In this document: piece by piece, positions 778 through 21,955 of the stretch
How the letters are laid out: each line of letters begins with the position of its first letter
Numbering within the stretch: position 1 is the stretch's first letter
DNA from: a virus
Lineage: Duplodnaviria; Heunggongvirae; Uroviricota; Caudoviricetes
Length of the DNA: 24,362 bases
IMG/VR virus record: IMGVR_UViG_2595698945_000001
Strand: one strand, 5' to 3'
Notes under the pieces: model-generated
Told to the model about the DNA's origin: nothing
What the model saw: only the letters and a program-made list of their open reading frames with translations
Databases searched by the model: none
Translations under genes and position numbers: made by a program

Positions 778-2034
778 ATGGCCATCCCGTCGTCTCTGAG
801 TCTCGTACAGCTGCATTCTGGGCAGATGCAAGTCTTCCAGTCGCCACATCGTTTCAAAGTGGTGTGTGCGGGTCGACGCTGGGGTAAATCCCGGTTGTCG
901 ATCTCCACCATCATCCGCGCGGCAGCCAAAGAGAAGAAGCAACGTGTCTGGTACGTCGCACCGACTTACCAGATGGCTCGCCAGATCTTGTGGGATGACC
1001 TGCAGGAAGTTCTGCCGCGTAAATGGGTTCGTAAGAAAAACGACACCACGATGACCATCGTGTTGAAGAACGGCTCTGAAATCGCGCTGAAAGGTGCGGA
1101 TAAGCCCGATACGCTTCGTGGTGTGGCACTGCACTTTGTGGTGCTCGATGAATTTCAGGATATGAAGCCGGACACCTGGTACAAGGTACTACGTCCGACA
1201 CTGTCCTCTACCCGTGGCGGTGCGCTGATCATCGGTACGCCAAAAGGCTTCTCCGAGTTCCACAAGCTGTGGACTATCGGTCAGAACAAAGATTTGCAAC
1301 GCAAGGGGCAGTGGAAAAGCTGGCAGTTCGTTACGGCTGATTCTCCGTTCGTACCGAGCGCGGAAATCGAAGCAGCGAAGAACGATATGGACCCTAAATC
1401 GTTCGCACAGGAATACCTGGCCAGCTTCGAAAACATGTCCGGACGCGTTTACTACCCGTTCGACCGCAATGTGCATGTGAAGCCACTCCAGTTCAATCCG
1501 AAACTGCCGATCTGGGTTGGTCAGGACTTCAACATCGACCCTATGTCATCGGTCATCCTGCAGCCGCAGCCAAATGGCGAGTTGTGGGCCGTGGACGAGG
1601 TTGTGCTGTTCTCTTCCAACACGGCTGAAGTGTGTGATGAGCTGGAGCGCCGTTTCTGGCGCTGGAAGTCTCAGGTCACTATCTTCCCTGACCCGGCTGG
1701 TGCGTATCGCCAGCACGCACGCGGCGAATCGGACGTCGATATCTTCAAGGAAAAAGGTTTCCTTCGAGTCGATTATCCGAAGAAGCACCCGCCGATCGCA
1801 GACCGTGTGAATGCAGTGAACCGCATGTTGATGAGTGCCTCGGGCGAAACACGGTTGTACATCGATCCGAAGTGCAAACACCTCATCGACTCGCTGGAGA
1901 AGGTGATCTACAAGCCAGGCTCACGCGATATGGATAAGACTGGCGGCATCGAACACAGTGCGGATGCGTTGGGTTATCCGGTTCATCGTAGGTATCCGGT
2001 GAAAAATCGTGTTATTCTTGGTGGATCTAGATAG
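778..2034 (+). CDS. terL: Terminase large subunit (Terminase_6-like ATPase plus RNase H-like nuclease)
   Basis: Walker A AGRRWGKS, Walker B VVLDE, coupling motif IIGTPKG, nuclease acidic residues in GQDFNIDP and EHSADALGY. Confidence 0.95.
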   Translation: MAIPSSLSLVQLHSGQMQVFQSPHRFKVVCAGRRWGKSRLSISTIIRAAAKEKKQRVWYVAPTYQMARQILWDDLQEVLPRKWVRKKNDTTMTIVLKNGSEIALKGADKPDTLRGVALHFVVLDEFQDMKPDTWYKVLRPTLSSTRGGALIIGTPKGFSEFHKLWTIGQNKDLQRKGQWKSWQFVTADSPFVPSAEIEAAKNDMDPKSFAQEYLASFENMSGRVYYPFDRNVHVKPLQFNPKLPIWVGQDFNIDPMSSVILQPQPNGELWAVDEVVLFSSNTAEVCDELERRFWRWKSQVTIFPDPAGAYRQHARGESDVDIFKEKGFLRVDYPKKHPPIADRVNAVNRMLMSASGETRLYIDPKCKHLIDSLEKVIYKPGSRDMDKTGGIEHSADALGYPVHRRYPVKNRVILGGSR

Positions 2035-2049
2035 GTAAGTGCTTACCTA
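2032..2049. promoter_or_regulatory. 18-bp palindromic operator-like site, copy 1 (before portal)
   Basis: TAGGTAAG-TG-CTTACCTA, a perfect 8-2-8 inverted repeat overlapping the terL stop codon. Confidence 0.7.
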
Positions 2050-2066
2050 ACGTAAAGGAAAAGCAA

Positions 2067-3641
2067 ATGGAATTGACTGACAAGCAAATCAAAGACCTTG
2101 TGGCACGACGCCACCCTGAATATGAGAAGAAAAAAGAACATTGGGACTTCCTCGCCAGCACCTACGCTGGCGGGCGTGCCTGGTTCAACGACAATATCTT
2201 CCGTTACTTCAAAGAGGGCGATCAGGAGTTCAAAGAGCGCCTGGAACGCGCTTATCGCTTCAACCATACGCGCGAAGTGGTAAACCTCATCAACAAATAC
2301 CTCTTCAAAGAGGTCATTCACCGCAACACTGATGAAGCACCGGAGCAGATCCGCAATTTCTGGAAGCGAGCCACGCGCCAGAACGCCTCCATCGATGCGT
2401 TTATGGCGGCTATCGATCTGCAATCATCCATTTATGGCCGTATCTGGGTTGTCGTGGATAGCACGATGAACGTCGATGTTGAGTCTGTTGCAGACGAGAA
2501 GAAAAATGATGCGCGTGCCTACGCTTACTGGATTTCGCCGCAGCAGCTGCTTGATGTTGCCTGGGATGAAGACGGCAATATGTTGTGGGCGCTGATTGTT
2601 GAAATCGCGCGCGACGACGAAGATCCGTTCACGTCAACCGGGCAGGAATACCAGCGTTACCGTCTGTGGACGCAAAACGAGTGGTATCTGTTCCGTGAAG
2701 AAGTGAAGAAAGGTTCCGGAAATAGCGGTCGCCGTCAGGCCAAAGTCGTTCTGGAGGATAGCGGCCAGCATAATCTGGGCGTGGTGCCGGTGTTCCCGGT
2801 GGATTGCATTGGTGAAAGCGAGTCTCCGTATTTCAGCCCGTCGTTGATTGACGATATTGCCTATCTTGATCGCGCCGTGGCCAACTACCTGTCGAACCTT
2901 GACGCGATTATTCAGGATCAGACATTCAGCCAGCTGGCGATCCCGGTTCAGTCATTGCTGCCGGGCGATGAAAACCACACCAAAGTGCTTGAAATGGGGA
3001 CAAAGCGCGTCTTCACCTTCGACTCTGAGAGCGGTAATCAGCCATTCTACCTGTCTCCGGACCCGAAACAGGCCCAGATGATTATCACCACGATTAAGAC
3101 GGTGATTAACGAGATCTACCATTCTGTTGGCGTGGCAGGTGAGCGAACCAAGCAGGATAACGCACAGGGCATCGATAACTCTTCGGGCGCAGCGAAGATG
3201 TACGACTTCCAGCGCGTTAACAGTCTGCTGGTGACGAAAGCAGAACGTCTCGAAAGGGCAGAGCGCCAGATGATGCAGCTGGCAGCGAAGTGGATGGGTG
3301 TCGAACTGAATGAAGACCACTCTCTGATCGCGTACCCGGAAAGTTTCGACATTCGCGGTCTGACTGACGAGTTTGCCGTTGCCGAGAAACTGTCGCTGCT
3401 CCAGGCGCCTGATTCTGTTCGTCGTCATCAGATGGAAATGCTCATCGAGAAGGTCTTCCCGAACATTTCCGAGGCGATGCAAAAGGAATTTCAAAAAGAT
3501 CTCTTGAAATTTCCTCCAAAAAATGATCTTAACACCCTTGAAAATAAGTCAGTACTTACTTATGATCGAGATACAGCCCAAGAAAGCGGGCAAGATCAAC
3601 CCCGAGGGAATGGGGACTCATCTACTCAAGAGACCGAGTGA
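2067..3641 (+). CDS. Portal protein
   Basis: 524 aa directly after TerL; largely helical with motifs typical of SPP1/DUF4055-like portals (N-terminal RHPEY, clip-region SGAAKMYDF); SD AAAGGA. Confidence 0.85.
   Translation: MELTDKQIKDLVARRHPEYEKKKEHWDFLASTYAGGRAWFNDNIFRYFKEGDQEFKERLERAYRFNHTREVVNLINKYLFKEVIHRNTDEAPEQIRNFWKRATRQNASIDAFMAAIDLQSSIYGRIWVVVDSTMNVDVESVADEKKNDARAYAYWISPQQLLDVAWDEDGNMLWALIVEIARDDEDPFTSTGQEYQRYRLWTQNEWYLFREEVKKGSGNSGRRQAKVVLEDSGQHNLGVVPVFPVDCIGESESPYFSPSLIDDIAYLDRAVANYLSNLDAIIQDQTFSQLAIPVQSLLPGDENHTKVLEMGTKRVFTFDSESGNQPFYLSPDPKQAQMIITTIKTVINEIYHSVGVAGERTKQDNAQGIDNSSGAAKMYDFQRVNSLLVTKAERLERAERQMMQLAAKWMGVELNEDHSLIAYPESFDIRGLTDEFAVAEKLSLLQAPDSVRRHQMEMLIEKVFPNISEAMQKEFQKDLLKFPPKNDLNTLENKSVLTYDRDTAQESGQDQPRGNGDSSTQETE
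3538..3566 (+). promoter_or_regulatory. Sigma70-like promoter inside the portal 3' end, pointing at scaffold and capsid genes
   Basis: TTGAAA (3538-3543), 17 bp, TATGAT (3561-3566); each hexamer matches consensus at 5 of 6 positions. Confidence 0.7.
3545..3562. promoter_or_regulatory. 18-bp palindromic operator-like site, copy 2 (fills the promoter spacer)
   Basis: TAAGTCAG-TA-CTTACTTA, one mismatch from a perfect palindrome. Confidence 0.7.
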
Positions 3642-3663
3642 TAAGTAACGAAAAGGAATTTCT

Positions 3664-4560
3664 ATGAATCTGTGGCAAATGCTTATGGCCCGTCGTGGCC
3701 TGATGGATGTAGCTGAAGCGCATGAGCGCGGCGGCGCTGGTGGCAGTGCTCCTGCTGGAGACAATGAGCAGAGCAATCAAGACCCAGGCAAACAGGGCGA
3801 GCAAAAAGAGCAACCGAAGGGTGACGACGACGAGTATGCCGGTATGACTCAGGAAGAGTTGCTGGCAGAACTGCGTAAGTCCAAGAAAGCCGGTGCTGAC
3901 CTGCTGAAAGAGAACATGAAGCGCAAGGAGAAAGAGCGCACATTGGCCGATCAGCTGGCTCAGTACGGTGATATTGACCCGGCGCGTGCTCGCCAGCTTC
4001 TCGAAGCTGAACAAGCCGCAGAAACCGCACGTCGGGAGGCGGAGCAGGCTGAACTGGAACGCCGTGGTGAGTTCGATGCTGTGAAAAAGCAGATGATCGA
4101 AGCGCACCAGGCTGAACTGGCACAGCGCGACGAACGCTACTCCGCTCTGGAGAGCGAGAACGCCGCACTGAAGGCTCAACTGGTCGAAATGACGGTTGGC
4201 GCTTCCTTCAGCGGCTCTGCCTTCCTGCGTGACAAAGTTCTGATGACTCCGGCTAAGGCTCGCGTTATCTACGGCTCTCATTTCGAAGTGGGTGAAGACG
4301 GTAGTGTTGTGGGCTTTGATAAGCCAGCCGGTCAGAAAGAACGTGCAGTTCTGGTTGACGGTGAAGGCAAACCGTTACCGTTCGAATCCGCGATTGAGCG
4401 CATTCTGCGTGCAGATCCGGAAGCTGACGCACTGTTGCGCAGCGAAGCCAAGCAGGGTGCTGGTTCCAATAGCAAACCGACCCACAAAGTAAACCAGCCG
4501 AAGAGCAAGTCGACTATGGATAAGTTGACCTCCGGTCTGGGGAAAATCGGACTCAAGTAA
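3664..4560 (+). CDS. Capsid scaffolding protein
   Basis: 298 aa between portal and capsid; low-complexity acidic N-terminal region, long E/K/A/R-rich coiled coil, basic C-terminal tail; no protease motif. Confidence 0.75.
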   Translation: MNLWQMLMARRGLMDVAEAHERGGAGGSAPAGDNEQSNQDPGKQGEQKEQPKGDDDEYAGMTQEELLAELRKSKKAGADLLKENMKRKEKERTLADQLAQYGDIDPARARQLLEAEQAAETARREAEQAELERRGEFDAVKKQMIEAHQAELAQRDERYSALESENAALKAQLVEMTVGASFSGSAFLRDKVLMTPAKARVIYGSHFEVGEDGSVVGFDKPAGQKERAVLVDGEGKPLPFESAIERILRADPEADALLRSEAKQGAGSNSKPTHKVNQPKSKSTMDKLTSGLGKIGLK

Positions 4561-4586
4561 CATCTTAAATCATAGGGAAATGAAAG

Positions 4587-5462
4587 ATGCCATTACTGCG
4601 TGATGAAGCTGAAAAGCTGTCTAACAACGAACTTGAGCAGGGTGTGATCGAGACCATCATCGATCGCGATGACCTGTTCGCTGTTCTGCCTTTCATGAAG
4701 ATTAATTCTAAGGCATACCTCTACAACCGCGAAGCTACCCTGAGCGAAGCAACCTTCATTGATGTGAACGACACCATCACCGAAGGCGCTGCAACCTTCA
4801 CCGAACACGTTGCGAAGCTGCGTATCCTGGCAGGCGACGTAGACGTCGACAAATTCCTGGCGACCACTATGTCCGACACCAACAACCAGCTGGCAATCCA
4901 GGTTCGTCAGAAGGTGAAAGGTCTGGCTCGCGCATTCCGCCGCAACCTGATTCTGGGCGACTCCAGCACCAACACCAAAGCGTTCGACGGCATTCCGAAG
5001 CTGATGCACGACGATCAGAAGATCGACATCGAAGGCGCTTCCATGACCTTCTCCATGTTCGACGAGCTGGTCGACGCGGTGAAAGATCTGGGCGCAGACT
5101 GCATCATGATGCGTTCCGAGCACCTGCGTGCTTATCGCGCTCTGCTGCGTACCGTTAGCCTCGGCCCGTCCGAAATCATGATGGAAAACTTCGGCCGTCC
5201 GATGCTGTGCCACAACGGTGTACCGTTCATCGTGAACGACTTCATCCCGACTGACGCGGGCAAAGCAAGCATCTACTGCCTGCACCTGTCCGAAGAGAAC
5301 GGTGTGACTGGTCTGTATGGCGGTGAAAACGCCGGTATCGTTGTTGAGAACATCGGTACTGTTCAGAACAAAGACGCAACTCGTACCCGCGTTAAGTGGT
5401 ACTGCTCTCTGGCGAACAAGCACGACAAGGCTATCGCCGCGCTGACCAACGTAAAAATTTGA
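4587..5462 (+). CDS. Major capsid protein (HK97 fold, no delta domain)
   Basis: 291 aa after scaffold; strongly biased codon usage; capsid-like motifs (LFAVLPF, LILGDS..NTKAFDGI, P-domain HNGVPFIVNDFIP); followed by a terminator. Confidence 0.85.
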   Translation: MPLLRDEAEKLSNNELEQGVIETIIDRDDLFAVLPFMKINSKAYLYNREATLSEATFIDVNDTITEGAATFTEHVAKLRILAGDVDVDKFLATTMSDTNNQLAIQVRQKVKGLARAFRRNLILGDSSTNTKAFDGIPKLMHDDQKIDIEGASMTFSMFDELVDAVKDLGADCIMMRSEHLRAYRALLRTVSLGPSEIMMENFGRPMLCHNGVPFIVNDFIPTDAGKASIYCLHLSEENGVTGLYGGENAGIVVENIGTVQNKDATRTRVKWYCSLANKHDKAIAALTNVKI

Positions 5463-5471
5463 TCAGTATAG

Positions 5472-5489
5472 TAGGTAAGTAATTATCTA
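5472..5489. promoter_or_regulatory. 18-bp palindromic operator-like site, copy 3 (after capsid gene)
   Basis: TAGGTAAG-TA-ATTATCTA, flanked by a complementary G and C. Confidence 0.6.
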
Positions 5490-5495
5490 CCGTTT

Positions 5496-5524
5496 AAGGG
5501 TGGGCTATACGCCCACCCTTTTTG
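5496..5524 (+). terminator. Rho-independent terminator after the capsid gene
   Basis: AAGGGTGGGC-TATAC-GCCCACCCTT followed by TTTT. Confidence 0.8.
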
Positions 5525-5536
5525 TAGGAGCGAGAA

Positions 5537-6460
5537 ATGCCAGAACAAAAGATGAAGATCACGGAAGAGGCGTTTGCGGATTTCACGGGGCATATGTGCC
5601 GTGCCGGATTCACCAATTCCATCTCCAACGAGCCTCTGAGCGAGCGCCAGCAGAACCATCTTGCGGCTTGCTTCCGGGCAATTCCGTTCACTCAGTCTGT
5701 CACCATTACACCGGCTGCGCCGTCCGTATTGGTGGGTAAAACCGTTCAACTTAGTGCAGGTATCACCATGAGCAAAAGCGCAGATTCATTCACCTGGACG
5801 TCGGCCAATGACCAGGTCGCCACAGTCAGCGGTACGGGTCTGGTTACTGGCGTGACCCCGGGAAAAGTGAAGATCACCGCCACCGATAAGCAGACTCAGC
5901 TTTCTGCGTCAGTCGAAGTGACCGTTAAGCCTGTCAGCGTGGAGTCCGTTACGGTAACGCCAGACTCTACCTCTGTTGAGAAGGGGAAATCGGTCAAGTT
6001 GCGCGTTGATGTACAACCGTCAAACGCAACCAATAAAAGAGTCACCTGGACTTCCAAAAATAGCGACAAAGCGACCGTTGACCAGAACGGTAACGTAGCT
6101 GGCGTAGCCGTTGGTACGGCAACCATTGAAGTGGTTTCGCAGGATGGCAGCCATAAAGCTACTGCTACGGTTGAAGTCACTGAGCCTGTCGTTGCTGTTA
6201 CTGGCGTCTCTGTCGATCCGAGCACCACCAGCGTTGAAGCCAACAAAACGGTACAGCTGACCGCGAACATCGAACCGGCTGGCGCAACCAATAAGCGCGT
6301 AACCTGGGCGTCAAAAAATGCCGAGTTCGCGACGGTTGATAGCGCAACTGGACTTGTGACCGGTGTGGCTGCAGGTACTGCCACTATCGAAGTCACCACG
6401 GAAGACGGTAGCCACAAAGCCACTGCGACCGTTGAAGTGACCGCAGCACCGGCTGCGTAA
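5537..6460 (+). CDS. Ig-like (Big_2) domain virion protein: about 50-aa N-terminal domain plus three Ig repeats
   Basis: Three repeats of the pattern V..V.V.P....V..GKTVQL.A.I.P..ATNKRVTW.S.N...ATVD..G.V.GVA.GTATI.V; repeats 2 and 3 are also similar at DNA level. SD TAGGAG. Confidence 0.85.
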   Translation: MPEQKMKITEEAFADFTGHMCRAGFTNSISNEPLSERQQNHLAACFRAIPFTQSVTITPAAPSVLVGKTVQLSAGITMSKSADSFTWTSANDQVATVSGTGLVTGVTPGKVKITATDKQTQLSASVEVTVKPVSVESVTVTPDSTSVEKGKSVKLRVDVQPSNATNKRVTWTSKNSDKATVDQNGNVAGVAVGTATIEVVSQDGSHKATATVEVTEPVVAVTGVSVDPSTTSVEANKTVQLTANIEPAGATNKRVTWASKNAEFATVDSATGLVTGVAAGTATIEVTTEDGSHKATATVEVTAAPAA

Positions 6461-6467
6461 CCAACAC

Positions 6468-6488
6468 ATGGGCGGCGATGCCGCCCAT
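6468..6488 (+). other. Intergenic hairpin (stability element, pause or weak terminator)
   Basis: ATGGGCGGC-GAT-GCCGCCCAT, a perfect 9-bp stem with no U tract. Confidence 0.5.
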
Positions 6489-6503
6489 TAAGTGAGAAGA
6501 AGA

Positions 6504-6938
6504 ATGAAACCAGCAAAAATTCGTTTATTGGAGCCTCAATTTTTGGGGTACACGGGCATTCTCTGCGGTATCCAGTTTGTCGACGGCATCTCGGTTGCCG
6601 AACTGCCATTCATCGATCAGCAGCGGATTTGTGCCTCCATGCGTGCCACTACCGTTGAAGGCAAAAATGTATCTCCTTCTGCCGCGTACAGCAGCCGCAA
6701 TGATTTAACTGCGGACGACATTGTCGAGACGGCGGCCCCGGATATTGTGCCAATGAAACGTGGTACGGCTGAAGTGGAAGCCAAACCGGTACAGCGCTTT
6801 ACTCGTGAAGAGCTGGAGTCGATTGCGGACTGTGAAGGTATTGCGGGTCTGCGTCAGATCGGCAACCAGATTGGCGTGAAAGCCAAAGGTATCGTTGAAA
6901 TGATCGAAGGCATCCTGAAAGCACAGGGCGGTGAGTAA
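6504..6938 (+). CDS. Uncharacterised 144-aa virion-associated protein; N-terminal domain paralogous to the Ig protein, C-terminal HeH/Rho_N-like helical domain
   Basis: The ATG at 6504 aligns residue-for-residue with the start of the 5537 protein. The C-terminal FTREELESIADCEGIAGLRQIGNQIGVKAKGIVEMIEGILKAQ resembles helix-extended-loop-helix domains (inference). Confidence 0.65.
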   Translation: MKPAKIRLLEPQFLGYTGILCGIQFVDGISVAELPFIDQQRICASMRATTVEGKNVSPSAAYSSRNDLTADDIVETAAPDIVPMKRGTAEVEAKPVQRFTREELESIADCEGIAGLRQIGNQIGVKAKGIVEMIEGILKAQGGE

Positions 6939-7771
6939 TGGCGCAGATCGACACGTACCGTAGCGGGGAAGCAGTTTCCCTGTCGTTTGCATTTAACGTT
7001 CTGGATATTGAGTCGGCCACGTATACCGTCAGAGATGGCGCAGGTGCGATCATCGTCGATAACGAACCTCTCGATATTACTGAGGGGCAGATGTCCATTC
7101 CGGTTGTCGTGTCGGCCGAACACAACCTGCTTTCAGATAAAGAGCGCGATCTGCGACACGTCATTGTCAAAGCGGTGGCATCCGGGCTGACGCATGAAGA
7201 GCGCAAGATGTACGTTCTGCTGAATAGCTTCGAGCTGTCAATTCCAGGCCAGTCATTCGCAACGGTCGCAGACGCCCAGATGCAAGCTATCGATATGCTG
7301 AACGGCGACACCCTGTTAGCTGATGGCGAAGGGCTGATGCGCAAACGTCTCATTGAGGCTACCAGACGCGTCAAAACGCTGCCGTTCTCAATCCGCAAAG
7401 TCCTGCGTATCGACTTCGACCGGTACGATCGCCCGCAAAACATGCTGAACGTCTATGACATTCCGTGGGGCGCTGACGGGGCATATCGTCACGATCTGAT
7501 CGATTGGGAGCAGATGACGCCTGAGAAATTCGACGAGTTCCCGGACTACTTCAAACAGGCATTAATGCTGGCCGTGGTTAATGAAGCCTGCGAAATCGCT
7601 AACGGTAATGACGTAGCGGCAGCCCGCGAGGACGGCATTCTGTCTGAGTCCATTGGTGAAACGACCAATATGTACCGCACCGGCAAAGCGGCAAATGTGC
7701 ATGTGGCTCGCAGTACCTGGCGACTGCTGGTCAGTTACATCAATAACCGCATGATTGTTCGCCGTGCGTAA
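6938..7771 (+). CDS. Head-tail adaptor protein with an extra N-terminal beta domain
   Basis: TAATG coupling to the upstream gene; position in the neck module; C-terminal half has an SFATVADA...ILSESIGETTNMY pattern like phage adaptor (DnaT-like family) proteins. Confidence 0.6.
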   Translation: MAQIDTYRSGEAVSLSFAFNVLDIESATYTVRDGAGAIIVDNEPLDITEGQMSIPVVVSAEHNLLSDKERDLRHVIVKAVASGLTHEERKMYVLLNSFELSIPGQSFATVADAQMQAIDMLNGDTLLADGEGLMRKRLIEATRRVKTLPFSIRKVLRIDFDRYDRPQNMLNVYDIPWGADGAYRHDLIDWEQMTPEKFDEFPDYFKQALMLAVVNEACEIANGNDVAAAREDGILSESIGETTNMYRTGKAANVHVARSTWRLLVSYINNRMIVRRA

Positions 7772-7868
7772 CGCCAGTCGCATTATTTACTTCTGGTCGA
7801 AAGGCTCAAGACGAGCAATCGCGCCTTCGCCTGGTAATGAGTGCGGCTGCCAACCACAGGGAGAGTGC

Positions 7869-8213
7869 ATGAACATTTCATGGCAAGCAGAGATAGCGAT
7901 TTACCGTCTGGGTTCGAAGAACGTCTACGGTGAAGCGCAATTGCAGTTCGTCAGGAAGACGAACGTCGGCGTCGTTAAGTTTGAGCAAAGTAACGAGAAG
8001 TCATCGGTACGTGCGGACAGCTCCGGCAGTCGCGGTAAAGCGAATCTGGAATTGTTCGATGCTGTTCTGGTGATCCCACTTGAGGCCGCAGTGCAGCTTG
8101 ATGACGTTCTCATTCTGGAGGGGCAAAAGCTGAAGGTATCCAGCGTGCATCGTCGCTGGGGACTGCGTGGGCGCCCTGGGCATCTGGAAGTAGGGGCAAA
8201 CATATGGGTCTGA
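7869..8213 (+). CDS. Head closure (stopper) protein
   Basis: 114 aa from the ATG with SD GGGAGAG; beta-rich; ends in the stopper-like VQLDDVLILEGQKLKVSSVHRR...HLEV. The track's TTG start at 7755 lacks an SD. Confidence 0.6.
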   Translation: MNISWQAEIAIYRLGSKNVYGEAQLQFVRKTNVGVVKFEQSNEKSSVRADSSGSRGKANLELFDAVLVIPLEAAVQLDDVLILEGQKLKVSSVHRRWGLRGRPGHLEVGANIWV

Positions 8214-8677
8214 AGTACGACGCGCATCAGTTTAAGCGTGCTGGCGACAGACTCAATAACAGCCAGAAAGCCTTTAAGCGCTATCTCATCCGTGACATGG
8301 AGAAGCTGGCGCGTCTGGTTGAGCGTCTGGCGCGGGCAATGGCCCCGCTGGAGACTGGCTCACTCGAAAGCGCGATCTTCGCGAGAGTGGTCAAAGAAGG
8401 CTATACAGGGCTGCGTATTGAGTTATCGGTATCTGGAGCCAAACCACGCGAAGGGCATCCGGGCGTTGAGGTTGGTGATTATGCGGAGTACATGGAGTTG
8501 GGCAAGTATCGTCTAGGCTATCTCTCCCGCATGAAGAGCGTCACCAACCCGCCAGTCGCTGGTGTGAAGCCACGAGTTGGGCCTTTGTTCCTTGAGAGAG
8601 CCGTGCAGATCAGTGAGAAGCAGTTCACTCAGACGATAGCAGAAGCGGCAAGGAAAGCAGGTTTTACGAGAGGTTGA
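8204..8677 (+). CDS. HK97 gp10-like tail completion/neck protein
   Basis: Motifs APLETGSLESAI, DYAEYMELG and PLFLERAV; position between stopper and tail terminator. Confidence 0.75.
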   Translation: MGLKYDAHQFKRAGDRLNNSQKAFKRYLIRDMEKLARLVERLARAMAPLETGSLESAIFARVVKEGYTGLRIELSVSGAKPREGHPGVEVGDYAEYMELGKYRLGYLSRMKSVTNPPVAGVKPRVGPLFLERAVQISEKQFTQTIAEAARKAGFTRG

Positions 8678-8678
8678 T

Positions 8679-9062
8679 GTGTTTATTGAAGCATTTGCGA
8701 GCCTGATGCAGAAGGCGAAGATCGGTACAGTCGGCACTGACATTTTCTGTCACTACATGCCAGCCAATGTGAAGTCCGGTGTTCTGTTGGTTACTCCCAA
8801 TACGGGGATCACCATTGACCATGAGTTAAAAGGCTTCTATCACGACTCTTTCACCGTCATCGTGCGTAATGCGACGATCACAAAGGCGGTGGCGAAAGCC
8901 AATAAGATCATGGACATGTTCCCGGTCGAAGAAACCGTGTCAGAGGGCGTTTACTTCCGGTTGGTTCGGCCAATGTCGATGCCGATTACTTATCCCAAAA
9001 ACGAAGGTTCGTTGATTGAAGCGGGTATCCCGATTGAATTTGCGGGCTATTTATTGAATTAA
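8679..9062 (+). CDS. Tail terminator protein
   Basis: 127 aa, GTG start with SD GAGAGG, immediately before the tail tube gene; alpha/beta pattern typical of gpU/DUF3168-like terminators. Confidence 0.65.
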   Translation: MFIEAFASLMQKAKIGTVGTDIFCHYMPANVKSGVLLVTPNTGITIDHELKGFYHDSFTVIVRNATITKAVAKANKIMDMFPVEETVSEGVYFRLVRPMSMPITYPKNEGSLIEAGIPIEFAGYLLN

Positions 9063-9083
9063 TAAAATAAGTAAGTATATACT
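9054..9083 (+). promoter_or_regulatory. Sigma70-like promoter for the tail tube operon
   Basis: TTGAAT (9054-9059), 18 bp, TATACT (9078-9083); the predicted start near 9090 coincides with a small hairpin GGCACC-GTGAA-GGTGCT (9091-9107). Confidence 0.5.
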
Positions 9084-9086
9084 TAC
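9068..9086. promoter_or_regulatory. 18-bp palindromic operator-like site, copy 4 (over the -10)
   Basis: TAAGTAAG-TA-TATACTTA (9068-9085), which also contains the perfect 16-bp palindrome GTAAGTATATACTTAC (9071-9086). Confidence 0.6.
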
Positions 9087-9136
9087 CATTGGCACCGTGA
9101 AGGTGCTGATTTAACGGAAAAAGGAGTTTTCCAACA

Positions 9137-9883: not shown

Positions 9884-9900
9884 TCGCGACGTAACTAAGC

Positions 9901-9926
9901 AGAGGCTCAGGAAGAGCCTCTCTTTT
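9901..9926 (+). terminator. Terminator-like hairpin with a GGA loop (also a candidate CsrA site)
   Basis: AGAGGCTC-AGGAA-GAGCCTCT then CTTTT; CAGGAAG matches the CsrB repeat CAGGA[UAC]G; SD GGA 18 nt downstream (9931-9933). Confidence 0.65.
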
Positions 9927-9942
9927 AAAAGGACTTTAACCA

Positions 9943-10610: not shown

Positions 10611-10617
10611 CAAGGGA

Positions 10618-15198: not shown

Positions 15199-15204
15199 CC
15201 ACGG

Positions 15205-15240
15205 CTGCCCCGGAAGGGGCAGTCTCACAAGGATGTGAGA
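15205..15240 (+). promoter_or_regulatory. Tandem GGA-loop hairpins; the second encloses the SD and first base of the gpM-like gene
   Basis: CTGCCCC-GGAA-GGGGCAG (15205-15222) and TCTCACA-AGGA-TGTGAGA (15223-15240). ACAAGGATGT matches the core of the CsrA SELEX consensus RUACARGGAUGU. Confidence 0.7.
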
Positions 15241-15575
15241 TGGAAAGACTGACTTTTAACTGGTATCCCGACTACGAGTCGGAAAAGACCGTGAAGCCTA
15301 ACGTGGCGGTTCTGAATTTTGGTGACGATTACGAACAGCGCCAGGCCAAAGGTCTCAATCGCATCAAAGAAGAGTGGAGCCTGACATTTACGCGCTCTTA
15401 CGACGTCATCAATGCCGTCGATGACTTTCTAACGGCACGCGCGGCCGTTGAGTCGTTCTACTGGACGAACCCTCGTGGCAAAAAGATTGTTGTGGTGTGC
15501 GACAGCCATACGGTCAAACGTTACCAGGGCTATCAGGTTCTCACTGCGACCTTCAGACAAATTTATGAAGGATAA
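15240..15575 (+). CDS. Minor tail protein, lambda gpM-like (distal tail)
   Basis: 111 aa; FGDDYEQRQAKGLN, FL.AR.AVESFYWT.P and LTATFRQ motifs; follows the tape measure gene. Confidence 0.9.
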   Translation: MERLTFNWYPDYESEKTVKPNVAVLNFGDDYEQRQAKGLNRIKEEWSLTFTRSYDVINAVDDFLTARAAVESFYWTNPRGKKIVVVCDSHTVKRYQGYQVLTATFRQIYEG

Positions 15576-15585
15576 TTTAACCCAC

Positions 15586-15614
15586 TAGATAAGTAAGCAC
15601 TTATTTACTATTAT
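15586..15614 (+). promoter_or_regulatory. Sigma70-like promoter for the L-K-I-J genes
   Basis: TAGATA (15586-15591), 17 bp, TATTAT (15609-15614). Confidence 0.5.
15590..15607. promoter_or_regulatory. 18-bp palindromic operator-like site, copy 5 (in the promoter spacer)
   Basis: TAAGTAAG-CA-CTTATTTA. Confidence 0.7.
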
Positions 15615-15618
15615 TTAT

Positions 15619-15643
15619 AGGCGCTGACAGGATGTTGGCGCCT
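15619..15643 (+). promoter_or_regulatory. GGA-loop hairpin (candidate CsrA site or attenuator) in the gpL-like leader
   Basis: AGGCGCTGAC-AGGAT-GTTGGCGCCT, a 10-bp stem with two G-U pairs and ACAGGATGT at the apex; SD CAAGGAAG has its GGA 22 nt downstream; followed by CTTTATTT. Confidence 0.65.
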
Positions 15644-15664
15644 CTTTATTTCAAGGAAGAAACG

Positions 15665-16363
15665 ATGGGTATTAAAGCTGATATTCAGAGCTTGTCGCCC
15701 TCCGCGCTCATTGAGTTGTTCGAACTTGATATGTCGAACACCACCTCTGGGGGCAAGCTGTTTTTCCACGCCGGCACAAACGAACTGATGGAGCCAGTCG
15801 TTTGGCAGGGTGTGTCCTACGAACCGTGGCCAATCAAAGCGTCAGGCTTTGATAAGACTGGTCAGGGTACTTTGCCGCGTCCAAAAATCCAGGTCTCCAA
15901 CTTTGCCGGAACTGTCTCCGCTGAAGTTCAGGCAAACGACGATCTGGTGGGTTGCCGCATCATCCGCAAGATGACGCTGGCGCGTTTTCTCGATGCGGCC
16001 AACTTCAAAGACGGGAATCCAACCGCAGATCCAAATCAGCACTTCCCGGATGAGATGTGGTTCATCGAACAGAAGACTCTCGAAACTCATGAGGTCGTCG
16101 AGTTTGAGCTGTCGAGTGTGTTCGATCTGATGGGCGTGCAGCTGCCGTACCGCCAGATCATCAAAAACACCTGCCCGTGGAAATACCGCGGCCCAGAGTG
16201 CGGCTACACCGGCCCATATTTCGACAAAAACAACCAGCAAACCACCATGTCAGGCGCGGATTACTGCACGAAACGCTACGACTCATGCAACGCTCGCCGT
16301 AACTACTTTGCCAATGGCGTAATCCACTTTGGCGGGTTCATCGGAGCAACGCGTTATGGGTAA
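15665..16363 (+). CDS. Minor tail protein, lambda gpL-like (4-Cys Fe-S motif)
   Basis: 232 aa from ATG 15665 (SD AAGGA); ALIELFELD and C-terminal C-x8-C-x22-C-x6-C; the track start at 15632 lies inside the leader hairpin. Confidence 0.9.
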   Translation: MGIKADIQSLSPSALIELFELDMSNTTSGGKLFFHAGTNELMEPVVWQGVSYEPWPIKASGFDKTGQGTLPRPKIQVSNFAGTVSAEVQANDDLVGCRIIRKMTLARFLDAANFKDGNPTADPNQHFPDEMWFIEQKTLETHEVVEFELSSVFDLMGVQLPYRQIIKNTCPWKYRGPECGYTGPYFDKNNQQTTMSGADYCTKRYDSCNARRNYFANGVIHFGGFIGATRYG

Positions 16364-17153
16364 TAAGGCGCTCCCTGAGCTTGGCTCGGACGTTATGCAA
16401 CAAATCTATCTGACAGCCATCAAACGCTACCCGAACGAAGCGTGTGGCTTTCTGGTGCGTACCACTGGCGAGAAATATCGCTTCATTGAAGCCCGGAACG
16501 TGTCGGAGTACCCGGAAAACACGTTTGTTATGCACGCTGACGACATTATCACTGCGGAAGATGCGGGGGACGTGGTTGCCATCTGGCACTCCCACACTGA
16601 CGAATCAGCTGATGCGTCAGACGCCGATCGCGCCGGATGCGAGGCAACGGAAGTTCCGTGGCTGATTCTGGCTGTTCGCAAGAACGTCGAGGGCGATGCG
16701 CCATTTCACTTCAGTGAGATGAATGTGATCACCCCAGACGGCTTTGAGATGCCTTATCTGGGGAGACCCTATGTGTTCGGTGTCTTCGACTGCTGGATGC
16801 TTTGCCGCGACTATCTCAAGCGCGAGTTTGGTGTTGAGCTGAATCCGAATGCGCACCTGCATATCCCGTCATGGTACACGGGCGACAACGACATTCTCGA
16901 CCAGAACTATCGAAATGAAGGGCTGGTGCGTCTTGCGCCAGGGACGGAACCGCAGCGCGGCGATGTCTTCTTCATCCAGTACGGAAAAATGCCTGACCAC
17001 TGCGCGGTGTATATCGGAGACGGCATGATCCTGCATCATCAGATCGACCGCCTGAGTTGTCGCGCTTATTACGGTGGCATGTACCAGAAACACACGACGC
17101 ACCACCTGCGTCACAGAGACTTACTCAAGGGAGATGAGACGTGTCTGAGTTAG
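16356..17153 (+). CDS. Tail tip assembly protein, lambda gpK-like (JAB/MPN plus NlpC/P60)
   Basis: EACG and WHSH..S..D JAMM motif; FDCW and DHCAVYIGDGMILH NlpC/P60 motifs; the ATG overlaps the gpL-like stop, SD GGAG. Confidence 0.9.
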   Translation: MGNKALPELGSDVMQQIYLTAIKRYPNEACGFLVRTTGEKYRFIEARNVSEYPENTFVMHADDIITAEDAGDVVAIWHSHTDESADASDADRAGCEATEVPWLILAVRKNVEGDAPFHFSEMNVITPDGFEMPYLGRPYVFGVFDCWMLCRDYLKREFGVELNPNAHLHIPSWYTGDNDILDQNYRNEGLVRLAPGTEPQRGDVFFIQYGKMPDHCAVYIGDGMILHHQIDRLSCRAYYGGMYQKHTTHHLRHRDLLKGDETCLS

Positions 17154-17731
17154 TTCATGTGCAACTTGGCGGCCCTATGGCCAAACACTTCGGTCGTCAC
17201 TGGCATTTGAAGGTTCGCAACACCAAGCAGGCTCTGGATTTGATTGAGGCTAATCGCCCCGGATTCAAAGCCTGGATGAAGCGAAACCTCAAAACCTACG
17301 ACAAATACCACATCCAGATCACCAACAAGCAGGGCCACAAATGGTCGGTCGACGAAGGTGAGTACCAGATGATGGGGCAGTCCGACAACATCGCGAAGAT
17401 CCGAATTACGCCAGTTCCTCGCGGTAGTGGCGGCTCTGCGTTTGGTTGGTTTCAGACGGTGGTGGGTGCTGTTTTGATGGTCGCCTCCATCTGGGTTCCA
17501 GCCCTGGCTCCGCTCGGTTTGTCATTAATGATGGGCGGCGTCGCGCAACTCATTTCGCCACAGGCGACGAACGACAGTGTGAGACAGGCGGATAACTCCG
17601 ACTCGTTCTATTTCGATGGGCCGCAGAACACCACTAACCAGGGAAACCCGGTGCAGCTCATCTATGGAGAGGAAATTTTGGTTGGCTCGCAGGTTGTGAG
17701 TTCTTCTATCACCATCGACCAGCTTATGTAA
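17141..17731 (+). CDS. Tail tip assembly protein, lambda gpI-like (ubiquitin-like N-terminal domain, hydrophobic segment)
   Basis: 196 aa, GTG start; IRITPVPRGSGG, hydrophobic stretch, QGNPVQLIYGE.LVGSQVVS. Confidence 0.9.
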   Translation: MSELVHVQLGGPMAKHFGRHWHLKVRNTKQALDLIEANRPGFKAWMKRNLKTYDKYHIQITNKQGHKWSVDEGEYQMMGQSDNIAKIRITPVPRGSGGSAFGWFQTVVGAVLMVASIWVPALAPLGLSLMMGGVAQLISPQATNDSVRQADNSDSFYFDGPQNTTNQGNPVQLIYGEEILVGSQVVSSSITIDQLM

Positions 17732-17748
17732 TAAGGGATTTTTTGAAC

Positions 17749-20700
17749 ATGGAACAGTTCAAGAAGAAAAGGCTGCCTCTCCTGATCGCAGGTGCAGGCG
17801 GCAAGAAAAGCAGCAGCTCCAGCCGCACGCCGGTTGAAGCCGATGATACCGTTAACTCGCGTGCTATGGCGTCTATCCTCGACTTGCTCGGGGAAGGCGT
17901 TATTGGCGGTCTTGTCAACGGGGCAAAGTCGATTTTCATCGACGACCTGCCGATTCTCAATGAAGACGGCTCTGCCAACTACAGCGGTATTACTTGGGAC
18001 TTTCGTGACGGCTCGCAAGACCAGACGCCGATGGACGGTTTCGATTTTGTTGAAACGCCCAAATCCATCAACATTCAGCTGAAAAAGACACATGAGGTGA
18101 CAGTCTCCATCGATAACGATGAAGCTGACCGCGTTCGAGTCATCCTCAAATTTCCCTCTCTGCGTAGCGTGGATAAGAAATCGGGTGACACCAACGGCAC
18201 AGCAGTCAAATACAAGTTTCAGATCGCCAATGGCGATGGAACATTTGCTGATGTAGTTGCTGAAGGCGAGAAAAGTGTTGAAGTTGCCCTGACAGCGAAG
18301 AAGACAGGTGTTTACTACCGCAGCTACGAACTCAAACTGCCGAAACCTGGCCGTGCATACAAGGTTCGTGTCATACGCCTAACCGACGACAGCAAAACTC
18401 AGTATCTCTATAACGATACGTGGGTGGACTCCATCGGTGAAATCGTCGATACGCCAATGAACTATCCGAACTCTGCGCTTGTTGGACTCAAGGTTAACTC
18501 CGAGCAGTTCGGTAGCTCTATGCCTTCTCGTTCGTATCTGGTGCGTGGTTTGAAAATCCGCGTGCCGTCAAACTACAACGAGAATACCAATACCTATGTT
18601 GGTGTTTGGGACGGTACGTTTAAGCTGCTGTCATCCTCTAACCCAGCCTGGATTCTCTTCGACGTTCTGACCAACGCTCGATATGGCCTTGGGCAGTTTG
18701 TCTCTGAGTCCATGATTGATCTTGGACAGATGTATCAGATCGGTCGCTATTGCGACGAAGAGGTTGTCGATGGTTTCGGCGGCAAGGAGAAGCGTTTCGC
18801 CATCAACACCCAGATAACCAGCCGGCAGGATGCCTATCGACTGATTCAGGATATCGCTGGCGCCTTCCGCGGTATGGTCTTCTGGGCTGGTGGAATGGTC
18901 AACGTCATGCAGGACAGCCCGTCAGATCCGGTCATGATGTTTACCAACGCAAACGTCAAAGATGGCCTGTTTAGCTATAAAGGTTCAGCTCGTAAAGATC
19001 GTCCTTCCGTTGCGCTTGTCACCTATAACAACAAAGAAGACGGCTACAAACAGAACATCGAGTACGTCGAAGACCAGGAGGCGATGCGTCGTTATGGCGA
19101 GCGCAAAACCGAAGTGGTTGCGTTCGGTTGTACCAGCCGTGGCCAGGCGCATCGTGTCGGTTTGTGGTTGCTGTATACCGCTCGCATGGAGTCTGACGTT
19201 ATTACCTTTACTGCAGGTCTTGACGCTTCGTTCTTAATGCCTGGTGAAACCGTGCTGATCCAGAACAAGTACCGTTCGGGCAAGCGCAACTCCGGTCGCA
19301 TTATGTCCTTTAACAAGAACAGCATCACATTAGACGCACCAGTATCGTTGAAGAAAAGCGGCAGCTACATTCGCATCTTGAACCAGGAAGGCAAGATCGT
19401 CGAACGCGACATTCTGGAGACGGGGGAGAATATCACTAAAGTGACGTTCTCGAAGTCTCTGGCATCCGGCGAAATGCCAGTAATGAATGGCATCTGGACT
19501 ATCACCGAACCAGACCTGGAGCCAATGCGAGTACGCGTTATCAACGTTGCGCAGGGTGATGCTCAAGGGTCTTTCGATGTGACGGTCGTCCAGAATAACC
19601 CTTCGAAGTACGAAGCGATAGACAATGGGGCGACGCTGATTCCGGAGAACAACACCGTTCTCGATCCAACATACTCGAAGCCGACAAACCTGCAGGTGAC
19701 GGAAGGAACGTATATTTCCAGCCCTGGCAACCTTTCCATCAAGCTTATTGCGACCTGGGAAGGTAAGTCTGCTGAATATTGGATCAGTTGGCGTCGCTCG
19801 GACGAGAACAACGTTTCTAACTGGCAGTCCGCGCGTGTCACTGAAGAGCAGTACGAAATCATCAATATTGCCGAGAATGGCCAATATGATATCCAGCTTT
19901 ATGCTGTGTCATTCAGCGGCAAAAAGACTGAGATCATCAGTACAGTCTATAAAGTTCAGGGAACGATGACACCGCCAGGCGCACCGACTGCGTTGACAGC
20001 CGTGGGTGACTATCGCAACGTGATTCTGAATTGGGTTAACCCTGATTCAATCGATCTCGACCACATCAACGTGTATGCGTCACAGACCAACGACCTGGAC
20101 ACCGCAAAACTGATTGCCGAGGCCGCCAGTACTACTTTCACCCATGCAGGTCTGGGGGATAGCGAAACGTGGTTCTATTGGGTTCGCGCGGCAAATAAGA
20201 GAGGCATGTTGAGTCCGCCAAACTCCAATTTGGGTACCGAGGCGATGACAAAGGATGTTCTCTCATTCCTGACAGGGAAAATCACATCTTCTGAGTTGGG
20301 ACAGGAGTTGCTTGAGGAAATCGACTCTAAGGTTTCTCAGGAGGCTGTTGATTCTATCTATCAGCAGATGGAAGAGAGCCTCAAAGATCTCGATGACAAG
20401 TTGACGGCGGCAGATCAGAGACTAGAAGAAGCGCAAAACGGGCTTAAAACGGAAGTGTCCGGCACTTTGGATAAGGTCAATGACGCTCTGCAACAGGTTG
20501 AAGATTCCAATGCGGCTTTAGTTGAGTTACAGGAAACTGTATCCGAGCAGGGCAAAGCCGTAGCTGGCGCGGTCGAAGCAGCTCATGCAGCACTCGATAA
20601 TGCCTCTGCATTGATTGCCGAAGAACGTGAGGCCCGAGTAGAAGGCGATATGGCGAACGCCAAACAGATTGAGGCGATGAAGTCTTCTGTTGACGATAGC

Positions 20701-21906
20701 GTTGCTGCTGTTGAAGAGATGAAGAAAACTGTGGCCGAAGTCGAGCGAGCCAGCGCGGAAGTGACCACCAATATTGAGGCATTGGCCAAAACCAATATCG
20801 ATCTTGCTCTGCGTCAGGATGAAGACCAGCACAAGCAGATGGTCAATAACGCGAAGATTGCCACCACTCAGAAGACGTTTGCCGACGATATGTCTGCAAT
20901 GGCCTCGAAAGTGGAAGAGATCCGCGCAGAAATTGGTGAAGATATTCGCGCTTCTATCACTGAAGAAACGACGGCTCGTGTTGAGGCTGATAAGGCTATT
21001 GCGACCCAAATAACCAAGCTTGAAGCTCAGATTAACGACGATATCGCTGCGGCAATTGTGACCGAACAAGAGGCTCGTGCAACAGCGGATGAGTCGTTGT
21101 CGAAGCAGATCACAACATTGCAAGCGAAGGTTGAGGGAGATATCAGCGCGGCGCTGGCCGAAGAGCAGATTGCAAGAGCGACCGCCGACGAATCGTTGGC
21201 GCAACAAATCACAACACTAAAGGCCCAAACAGGCGCCGACATTAAGGCGGCTGTTGCGGAAGAAACGAAAGCCAGAACCGATGCCGACTCTGCGCTGGCA
21301 GGGCAAATCACCGATTTGCAGGCTCAGACAGGAAAAGATATCAGTGCCGCAATTACTTCTGAAGCAACTGCACGCGCGGAAGCCGATAAAGCACTAGGTG
21401 GTCGTATTGATACGATTAAGGCTGAAGTAGACGGCAACTCGGCCACTATCCAGCAGCAGGCCCAGGCAATTGCCGATACCAACAAAAAGGTTTCGACAGC
21501 GTGGACGCTTAAAATGGAGACTTCCACGAGCGGTGGCCAGAAATATGTTGCCGGTATCGCGCTGGGCATTGATAGCACAGGTCTTTCTCAGTTCCTTGTT
21601 CAAGCAGACCGCTTTGGTCTTGTGAACTCGGTTAACGGGAAAATCACCACACCGTTTGTGGTCGAAAACAGCGTTGCTTACATGAACGGCGCTTTTATCA
21701 AGGATGGAACAATCACCAACGCCAAAGTTGGCGACCTACAGTCCACCAACTTTGTCTCTGGCCGTTCGGGATGGCGCTTTGGGAAAAATGGCGTGCTGGA
21801 GATCAACGGTAATAGTGGCGGTAACGGTCGTCTGGTCATCAACGGCCAGCGTATCGACGTCTATGACGACAACAACGTTCTCCGAGTGAGGATTGGGCTT
21901 CTTTGA
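17749..21906 (+). CDS. Central tail fibre / tail tip protein, lambda gpJ-like, 1385 aa
   Basis: N-terminal DLLGEG.IGG, SSNPAWILFD, fibronectin-III-like repeats, long coiled coil, DUF1983-like SQFLVQADRF and C-terminal RVRIGLL. Confidence 0.92.
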   Translation: MEQFKKKRLPLLIAGAGGKKSSSSSRTPVEADDTVNSRAMASILDLLGEGVIGGLVNGAKSIFIDDLPILNEDGSANYSGITWDFRDGSQDQTPMDGFDFVETPKSINIQLKKTHEVTVSIDNDEADRVRVILKFPSLRSVDKKSGDTNGTAVKYKFQIANGDGTFADVVAEGEKSVEVALTAKKTGVYYRSYELKLPKPGRAYKVRVIRLTDDSKTQYLYNDTWVDSIGEIVDTPMNYPNSALVGLKVNSEQFGSSMPSRSYLVRGLKIRVPSNYNENTNTYVGVWDGTFKLLSSSNPAWILFDVLTNARYGLGQFVSESMIDLGQMYQIGRYCDEEVVDGFGGKEKRFAINTQITSRQDAYRLIQDIAGAFRGMVFWAGGMVNVMQDSPSDPVMMFTNANVKDGLFSYKGSARKDRPSVALVTYNNKEDGYKQNIEYVEDQEAMRRYGERKTEVVAFGCTSRGQAHRVGLWLLYTARMESDVITFTAGLDASFLMPGETVLIQNKYRSGKRNSGRIMSFNKNSITLDAPVSLKKSGSYIRILNQEGKIVERDILETGENITKVTFSKSLASGEMPVMNGIWTITEPDLEPMRVRVINVAQGDAQGSFDVTVVQNNPSKYEAIDNGATLIPENNTVLDPTYSKPTNLQVTEGTYISSPGNLSIKLIATWEGKSAEYWISWRRSDENNVSNWQSARVTEEQYEIINIAENGQYDIQLYAVSFSGKKTEIISTVYKVQGTMTPPGAPTALTAVGDYRNVILNWVNPDSIDLDHINVYASQTNDLDTAKLIAEAASTTFTHAGLGDSETWFYWVRAANKRGMLSPPNSNLGTEAMTKDVLSFLTGKITSSELGQELLEEIDSKVSQEAVDSIYQQMEESLKDLDDKLTAADQRLEEAQNGLKTEVSGTLDKVNDALQQVEDSNAALVELQETVSEQGKAVAGAVEAAHAALDNASALIAEEREARVEGDMANAKQIEAMKSSVDDSVAAVEEMKKTVAEVERASAEVTTNIEALAKTNIDLALRQDEDQHKQMVNNAKIATTQKTFADDMSAMASKVEEIRAEIGEDIRASITEETTARVEADKAIATQITKLEAQINDDIAAAIVTEQEARATADESLSKQITTLQAKVEGDISAALAEEQIARATADESLAQQITTLKAQTGADIKAAVAEETKARTDADSALAGQITDLQAQTGKDISAAITSEATARAEADKALGGRIDTIKAEVDGNSATIQQQAQAIADTNKKVSTAWTLKMETSTSGGQKYVAGIALGIDSTGLSQFLVQADRFGLVNSVNGKITTPFVVENSVAYMNGAFIKDGTITNAKVGDLQSTNFVSGRSGWRFGKNGVLEINGNSGGNGRLVINGQRIDVYDDNNVLRVRIGLL
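20941..21435 (+). repeat. Five tandem 99-bp (33-aa) repeats in the J-like shaft
   Basis: Units start at 20941, 21040, 21139, 21238 and 21337; consensus DI.AAI.EE..AR..AD.ALA.QIT.L.AQ.G. Confidence 0.85.
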
Positions 21907-21937
21907 CAGTAGAAATATTTCTTCATATCGGTAAAAA

Positions 21938-21955
21938 TAAGTAGGTACTTACTTA
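21938..21955. promoter_or_regulatory. 18-bp palindromic operator-like site, copy 6 (before the side fibre gene)
   Basis: TAAGTAGG-TA-CTTACTTA, one mismatch from a perfect palindrome. Confidence 0.7.

Follow-up and report, generated by a model that had tools for sequence, protein, structure and literature searches.

The 24,362-nt window analysed here, the whole stretch of DNA in IMG/VR record IMGVR_UViG_2595698945_000001, is the terminase-to-tail-fibre (structural) module of a ~109-kb phage-plasmid of the SSU5/pHCM2-like type, and the feature under study is an 18-bp palindrome dispersed along it. The window matches 799 plasmid records from Klebsiella, Escherichia, Enterobacter, Yersinia, Salmonella and other genera. 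Its best match is the complete Enterobacter plasmid NZ_CP133340.1, at 97.9% identity, and phage Cyrano of E. coli LF82 matches it at ~80%. Counts for whole replicons are drawn from such relatives (NZ_CP133340.1, Cyrano and others) and not from the window's own replicon. Phage-plasmids of the SSU5/pHCM2/pMT1 type are common in clinical Klebsiella, E. coli, Enterobacter, Salmonella and Yersinia, and they carry resistance genes. Full-text literature searches returned no account of the motif, or of lysogeny maintenance, in these elements.

A first-pass annotation of the window had listed six 18-bp palindromes, five at gene boundaries and one within a coding region, and all six are present as it wrote them. 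A degenerate pattern search of the window returns exactly six 18-mers, starting at positions 2032, 3545, 5472, 9068, 15590 and 21938, where 0.05 would be expected, and none of 100 shuffled windows reaches 10 strand-matches. The consensus is the dyad TA(A/G)GTAAG-NN-CTTAC(C/T)TA. The list of open reading frames (ORFs) agrees with the five-to-one placement, the site at 3545 being internal to the portal gene. An isolated half site and a TTGACA hexamer, which had also been reported, are likewise found in the sequence. The sites are given below with coordinates and strand.

2032..2049, unstranded: putative operator copy 1, TAGGTAAGTGCTTACCTA; terL ends at the first TAG of the site, and the portal ATG is at 2067, 17 nt on
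3545..3562, unstranded: putative operator copy 2; within the portal ORF, at its 3′ end; the scaffold gene follows after ~100 nt
3642..3649, + strand: half site TAAGTAAC; isolated, directly after the portal stop codon, with no partner arm
5472..5489, unstranded: putative operator copy 3; 9 nt past the end of the major capsid gene, with a hairpin downstream
9068..9085, unstranded: putative operator copy 4; precedes the tail-tube gene
15590..15607, unstranded: putative operator copy 5; between M-like and L-like tail genes
21938..21955, unstranded: putative operator copy 6; between J-like tail-tip and side-fibre genes, ~30 nt downstream of TTGACA (21903–21908)

Distribution of the palindrome and its candidate binder

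Related replicons were scanned with the motif, as the first-pass annotation had suggested, and it proved to be conserved, with ~30 copies in a whole phage-plasmid of the SSU5/pHCM2 type. NZ_CP133340.1 holds 27–28 sites at ≤3 mismatches, compared with 1.4 in shuffled sequence, and about 27–30 copies overall, whereas motif matches in the host chromosome of the nearest genome are no higher than the control level. The sites in NZ_CP133340.1 flank the early genes nrdA, thyA, dam, rnhA, primase and phoH besides late ones. Because ~30 boundaries, early and late, carry the palindrome, the six window sites are members of a genome-wide set and not a late feature; the sites described in the late region are real, but their restriction to that region does not stand.

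The placement of the sites is far from random. The motif core falls within a coding sequence (CDS) at only 3 of 27 sites in NZ_CP133340.1, which is 87% coding (binomial P ~1e-18), a test that rests on the incomplete annotation of this plasmid. From the listed distances, the estimated medians are ~14 nt past the upstream stop codon and ~45 nt ahead of the next start. The sites lie in short gaps within co-directional gene blocks, a placement of the stoperator type considered below.

Individual sites are also conserved in position. Orthologous copies of the window sites were found for all six in Cyrano and for five of six in a Klebsiella relative whose portal is 72% identical, and orthologous junctions hold the motif across relatives with portals 93%, 72% and 52% identical. 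The palindrome between terL and portal (2032) occupies the same junction in Cyrano, the Klebsiella relative and an Acinetobacter relative. The copy that precedes the tail-tube gene (9068) is kept in position in the same three relatives, and copy 3 (5472) in Cyrano and Klebsiella. In the Acinetobacter element (portal 52% identical), the palindrome is the sole alignable block of the spacer at both the terL–portal and the pre-tube junctions.

A tblastn census identified a 128-aa XRE-family protein as the only small helix–turn–helix (HTH) regulator common to the enterobacterial, Acinetobacter, Massilia and Magnetospirillum elements, and the hosts of the relatives that share it span alpha-, beta- and gamma-proteobacteria. 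The protein is a homologue of Cyrano CYRAN_45. Its gene lies outside the window, where it adjoins the integrase gene and diverges from the cobT-AAA-dnaE block, and the order dnaE-AAA-cobT-XRE is kept in 4/4 elements checked (enterobacterial, Acinetobacter, Massilia and Magnetospirillum). Profile searches with the protein gave a weak match to Pfam HTH_31 and a clearer one to PHROG 8, 'transcriptional regulator'; a sequence search against solved structures gave nothing significant.

The XRE gene has the promoter TTTACA-N16-TAATAT, followed directly by the palindrome GGTAAGCACTTACC at ~+1, and this block of promoter and palindrome is identical in two genomes that are otherwise ~80% alike. In the Klebsiella, Acinetobacter, V1VFA-S and RHEph10 genomes, too, XRE is preceded by motif-like palindromes. 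CYRAN_45 is transcribed at 10-fold over background in the Cyrano lysogen, in which most genes are silent, and ciprofloxacin induces Cyrano 39-fold (PMC9928086).

Several other proteins were tried as binders and set aside as unconserved beyond the enterobacterial clade: an FljA-like 175-aa 'transcriptional regulator', Rha, an 88-aa protein encoded before terS and a 185-aa 'DNA-binding protein'. The FljA-like protein (NZ_CP133340.1, 72315–72842), the conservation of which is confined to that clade, matches Pfam Flag1_repress (FljA, the phase-1 flagellin repressor) with E 4.5e-97 and is possibly a moron that targets host flagellin.

Perfect dyads with 6-nt arms were counted de novo in 18 related genomes, 15 with the XRE gene and three without it. 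All 15 XRE-bearing relatives have one highly repeated palindrome, the commonest dyad being present in 4–30 perfect copies versus 1–2 in shuffles. In the three XRE-less virulent relatives (Pseudomonas phage nickie, Xanthomonas phage JGB6 and Stenotrophomonas phage BUCTxx99), no dyad occurs in >2 copies. These three phages have 41–45 proteins in common with the enterobacterial element and retain ParB/Srx, the ABC-type ATPase, the DEAD helicase and the dnaE block.

The half-site of the repeated palindrome varies between clades. It is GTAAG in the enterics, Acinetobacter, V1VFA-S, Chelativorans and Halomonas; GTCA in Massilia, Magnetospirillum, Chitinibacter, Methylocystis and Paraburkholderia; ATCA in RHEph10 and Phyllobacterium; and GTGA in Ancylobacter. 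The third residue after the glycine of the HTH turn in the XRE protein probably opens the recognition helix; Asn holds this position in 7/7 GTAAG-type genomes. In non-GTAAG genomes with an assigned motif the residue is Lys, Ser or Gln (8/8) and never Asn (0/8). From this association, Asn at that position is a candidate specificity residue. Two sister pairs contrast in the XRE tree, namely V1VFA-S versus Ancylobacter and Acinetobacter versus Massilia copy 2 (which has Pro), with 93% and 94% support, respectively, in the Shimodaira–Hasegawa-like approximate likelihood ratio test (SH-aLRT). The best tree contains four contrasts, all in the same direction.

Two members of the lineage lie in larger sequences. 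The Halomonas relative occupies ~1.88–2.00 Mb of a complete 4.2-Mb chromosome and the Paraburkholderia relative 340–420 kb of a 450-kb contig; each has the XRE gene and dispersed palindromes. As these copies sit within a chromosome or a large contig, some lineage members may be integrated prophages and not plasmids.

Genes that are lost together are inseparable by co-occurrence, so the binder might instead be another element-encoded protein that was lost along with XRE from the virulent relatives, XRE being no more than the neighbour of one copy. The description of PHROGs, in which ~87% of phage protein families are without known function, leaves room for such a protein. However, a tblastn search with the proteins of CP133340 found no other small DNA-binding candidate common to the Acinetobacter, Massilia and Magnetospirillum elements, and the association between Asn and half-site implicates XRE itself. 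A co-lost binder of this kind is accordingly given a low probability. It is proposed, with moderate confidence, that the 18-bp dyad is the operator of the element's own XRE repressor, which would silence lytic genes at ~30 boundaries in the plasmid-prophage.

Symmetry, promoters and RNA

When the sites are aligned in the sense direction, the dyad extends weakly and symmetrically to ~24–26 bp (ATGA...TCAT). In many copies, the terminal TA is followed by TCAT, TGAT or AAAT, which places a -10-like hexamer from motif position 17, and several Massilia sites show the same geometry, with TATAAT starting at the last T. In P1 late (Lpa-type) promoters, an inverted repeat lies upstream of the -10. By this analogy, the palindrome would be the activator site of a phage-specific class of -35-less promoters.

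Promoter-like pairs do overlap three window sites, as the first-pass annotation had reported for sigma70-like promoters. A consensus scan places TTGAAA (3538–3543)-17-TATGAT (3561–3566) over copy 2, whose operator fills the 17-bp spacer; TTGAAT (9054–9059)-18-TATACT (9078–9083) over copy 4, whose operator overlaps the spacer and the -10; and TAGATA-17-TATTAT (15586–15614) over copy 5. The total of promoter-like matches in the window is nevertheless at chance level (7 versus 6.9 in shuffles; 5 versus 7.3). Copy 2 alone has a strong promoter that is kept in two relatives, Cyrano and the Klebsiella one, and there the block is conserved in its entirety. A convincing promoter is wanting at the four window copies other than 3545 and 9068. 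The overlap of operator and promoter is clear at 3545 and plausible at 9068, and it forms no general or directional signature.

Across six genomes, the -10-like hexamer at the motif edge is equally common on both strands (sense versus antisense: 10 vs 16, 7 vs 6, 4 vs 12, 2 vs 2, 8 vs 6 and 3 vs 4), so that the strand bias of an Lpa-type promoter is not seen. Because the hexamer is unbiased between strands, the flank is taken as a symmetric extension of the dyad, fitting a symmetric protein site and not a directional promoter. A fixed promoter geometry, with the -10 at the motif edge, was rejected on the same symmetry.

Furthermore, at several sites the next start codon is only 2–18 nt away, too close for a promoter and a leader of normal length to fit; the sites flank early genes and not late genes only; and terminator-like hairpins directly follow two of the window sites. 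Virulent relatives that have neither the motif nor the regulator keep the same gene order and express the same modules, which argues against an essential activator or promoter role. That the palindrome marks an activated promoter class is distinctly improbable on this evidence, and the activator role suggested earlier for some copies is unlikely. Similarly, the proposal that one regulator controls structural genes at internal late promoters, instead of through a single late transcript, finds no support, given the sites at early genes, the want of a directional signature and the 2–18-nt gaps.

Of the two terminator-like hairpins, both of which have a T run, the one after copy 3 is a stem-loop at 5498–5514 by scanner, extending to ~5522 by eye, and the one after copy 5 (15619–15643) has an 11-bp stem. 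They begin ~10 nt or less past the copies at 5472 and 15590, and this position directly downstream suggests partial termination points inside the late block.

Other conceivable roles are those of RNA hairpins, for processing or weak termination, and of parS partition sites for ParB-like proteins, as the sites lie between co-directional genes, just past stop codons. The RNA reading was prompted by the six window copies, in which every deviation from symmetry is G.U-compatible on the sense strand. For the parS reading, there is a precedent in N15, which has dispersed centromere sites of the SopB type. However, genome-wide counts of sense-strand G.U versus A.C mismatches are 5 versus 13 in one genome and 11 versus 11 in the other, which is not the pairing of a structured RNA, and RNA hairpins were rejected on these counts. 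In addition, motif positions 3 and 16 are mixed in 16/45 sites, and the stem would be AU-rich with a loop of 2–4 nt. ParB/Srx is kept in 3/3 motif-less relatives, and ParB-like proteins are excluded as binders on that ground. Both the RNA and the parS readings are highly improbable.

A further reading, in which TAAG-TAAG/CTTA-CTTA is resolved into four units at a 4-bp offset ('dimer of dimers'), is not general and was rejected because the GTCA-type clades are without this periodicity.

A second dispersed palindrome, unrelated to the 18-bp motif, lies at the head of the structural block:

55–69 and 80–94, + strand: two copies of the second palindrome, (T/A)AAACAA-N-TTGTTT(T/A), upstream of terS (134)

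The two copies are followed by a terminator-like hairpin at 95–114, and together these features head the block. The second palindrome occurs in ~20 copies per enterobacterial genome, typically with a conserved GATAAT...CACCAACAAG block on one side and the ribosome-binding site on the other, which is a fixed promoter-proximal position. Where the structural block begins, it is this palindrome, and not the 18-bp motif, that looks more like a promoter element. In the Acinetobacter element, it did not rank with the most repeated dyads.

Likeness to SlmA-binding sequences

The 12-mer recognised by SlmA is GTGAGTACTCAC, in which G, T, A and G are invariant at positions 1, 2, 4 and 5, either purine is accepted at position 3 and either pyrimidine at position 6 (PMC3020112). 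The core of the phage consensus, GTAAGTACTTAC, satisfies every one of these rules, and the core of copy 1 (2032) is a perfect 12-mer under them. Correspondingly, the consensus oligonucleotide for SlmA-binding sequences (SBSs) derived by chromatin immunoprecipitation (ChIP) matches the phage 18-mer at 14/18 positions, including the TAA/TTA flanks (PMC4423959). There are four perfect 12-mers in the 109-kb replicon, equal to the number in the 5.4 Mb chromosome, and the nearest host genome encodes SlmA. From the rules, the consensus match and the four perfect 12-mers, SlmA is expected to have affinity for the best copies at least.

The sites could on this view be SBSs whose main protein is SlmA, the TetR-family nucleoid-occlusion factor of the host, acting there to silence promoters or to load the FtsZ antagonist. 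Published precedents for SlmA acting at such sites are that an SBS within a promoter spacer represses a reporter and that a multicopy plasmid with SBSs blocks division (PMC3573117). Perfect 12-mers are nevertheless found at only 1/6 window sites and 4/~28 replicon sites; natural SBSs are also degenerate (PMC4423959).

Comparison across elements and hosts separates the motif from SlmA. Rhizobium phage V1VFA-S has 37 copies with the identical consensus TAAGTAAG-NN-CTTACTTA, and Acinetobacter elements have ~25 copies of the near-identical TTAGTAAGCGCTTACTAA. A match to SlmA-like_C is absent from the element-carrying A. geminorum genome and from Magnetospirillum, the completeness of these genomes being unreported. 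Conversely, a Photobacterium relative has a SlmA-encoding host and yet a GTCA-type dyad that breaks the SlmA rules. The motif follows the XRE gene, not host SlmA, and no SlmA-like TetR is encoded on any element examined. As the motif is unchanged in the Rhizobium phage and nearly so in Acinetobacter without a SlmA-like_C match, SlmA is not the primary partner, and the chance that it is the main protein at these sites is judged to be small.

An element-encoded SlmA-like TetR was also considered and rejected, the enterobacterial elements having no TetR-family protein. The TetR of the Acinetobacter element is an AcrR-type protein without similarity to SlmA, carried as insertion sequence (IS)-linked cargo next to IS5. 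This IS5-flanked cargo (NZ_CP082891.1, 47753–57020) comprises the TetR/AcrR regulator, an alkene reductase, alcohol dehydrogenases and formaldehyde-detoxification genes.

By comparison of the motif across hosts, the likeness to SlmA sites is taken to predate life in SlmA-bearing hosts. Any use of SlmA would be an exaptation and not the origin of the sites, because the motif is ancestral to the phage lineage. It is possible, although unlikely, that the enterobacterial operators double as high-affinity SlmA sites, with competition between SlmA and the repressor, titration of SlmA or loading of the FtsZ antagonist onto the plasmid as the outcome. At ~5 copies with ~30 sites per copy, the plasmid-borne sites would outnumber the 24–52 chromosomal SBSs. 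If such double use were real, plasmid copy number or lytic replication would be coupled to a division block, and the sites would amount to a cis-encoded inhibitor. The identity with the SlmA consensus provides a concrete hypothesis of cross-talk with host cell division.

Proposed regulation and known systems

With the sites, their distribution and conservation, their co-occurrence with XRE and the autoregulatory placement directly established, a mechanism of repression by XRE may be proposed. XRE, as a dimer or higher oligomer, would occupy ~30 gene boundaries and silence the lytic genes, early and late, while the element persists as a plasmid-prophage. At 3545 and 9068, where the site covers the spacer or the -10, bound XRE would occlude the promoter and exclude RNA polymerase, as in the reporter with an SBS in its spacer. 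At the other copies, XRE would probably either form a roadblock or anchor cooperative binding. Through the palindrome at its own promoter, XRE would limit its own synthesis.

The first-pass claim of a single element-encoded dimeric HTH regulator survives in that the sites look like operators of such a protein, while its late-only scope does not. Its view of repression as the likelier sign of control is supported by the present evaluation, and the scattered C1 operators of P1, which it cited, are a fair analogue.

Several points weigh against XRE as the repressor at these sites. XRE has no LexA-like cleavage domain, so that the route of SOS induction is left unexplained if XRE is the repressor. 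An antirepressor is the usual solution for SOS relief of a non-cleavable repressor in such phages. For a single XRE dimer, a palindrome of up to 26 bp is long. The three XRE-less phages come from related host groups, so that one loss event may account for all of them, and XRE would have disappeared along with other lysogeny genes. The XRE tree is poorly resolved, with one starred branch, and a sign test cannot reach significance because there are at most four independent contrasts. Finally, as the motif equals the SlmA consensus, a second binder is possible in enterobacteria.

Knowledge of a probable master repressor and its operator, with a candidate residue for specificity, would make the regulon predictable from sequence and give a handle on curing or inducing these elements. 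The change of half-site from clade to clade also offers a natural series for the evolution of specificity.

The proposed regulation resembles that of P1, another plasmid-prophage of ~100 kb, in which the single immunity repressor C1 acts at a score of scattered operators, many of them at promoters, and the repressor gene itself is under one operator. Correspondingly, the SSU5/pHCM2-like elements have many putative operators above chance and one at the promoter of the candidate repressor. The P1 operators, however, are asymmetric 17-mers of unrelated sequence, and C1 is not of the XRE type. Unlike those of P1, the dyad sites described here lie mostly directly past stop codons, without a recognisable promoter.

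A second parallel is with the gp71 stoperators of mycobacteriophage L5 and cluster A, which number ~30 copies in short intergenic gaps within long co-directional units. The L5 stoperators are thought to stop elongating polymerase in the lysogen. They differ in being asymmetric 13-mers in a fixed orientation; the sites here lack that asymmetry and, as palindromes, cannot depend on orientation. A third parallel is RK2 (IncP), in which one global repressor, KorB, acts at a dozen copies of one palindrome, the operator OB. KorB is a ParB-family protein, whereas the ParB-like genes of the present lineage persist in relatives without the palindrome. The SBSs of E. coli have nearly the same 18-bp sequence, are dispersed and are bound by a dimeric HTH protein (PMC3020112, PMC4423959, PMC3573117). 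Chromosomal SBSs number 24–52 per 4.6 Mb and avoid promoters, while the phage-plasmid sites number ~30 per 109 kb and lie nearly all between genes.

This type of control is thus known from P1 C1, the L5 stoperators and RK2 KorB, but seems undescribed for the SSU5/pHCM2 family. As judged from sequence, the present system is set apart from these by its palindromic site, its candidate XRE-type binder, a lineage that extends across three proteobacterial classes and its clade-specific half-sites. What is new here is the comparison of relatives with and without XRE, the candidate specificity residue and a likeness to SlmA sites that is older than the lineage's residence in SlmA-bearing hosts.

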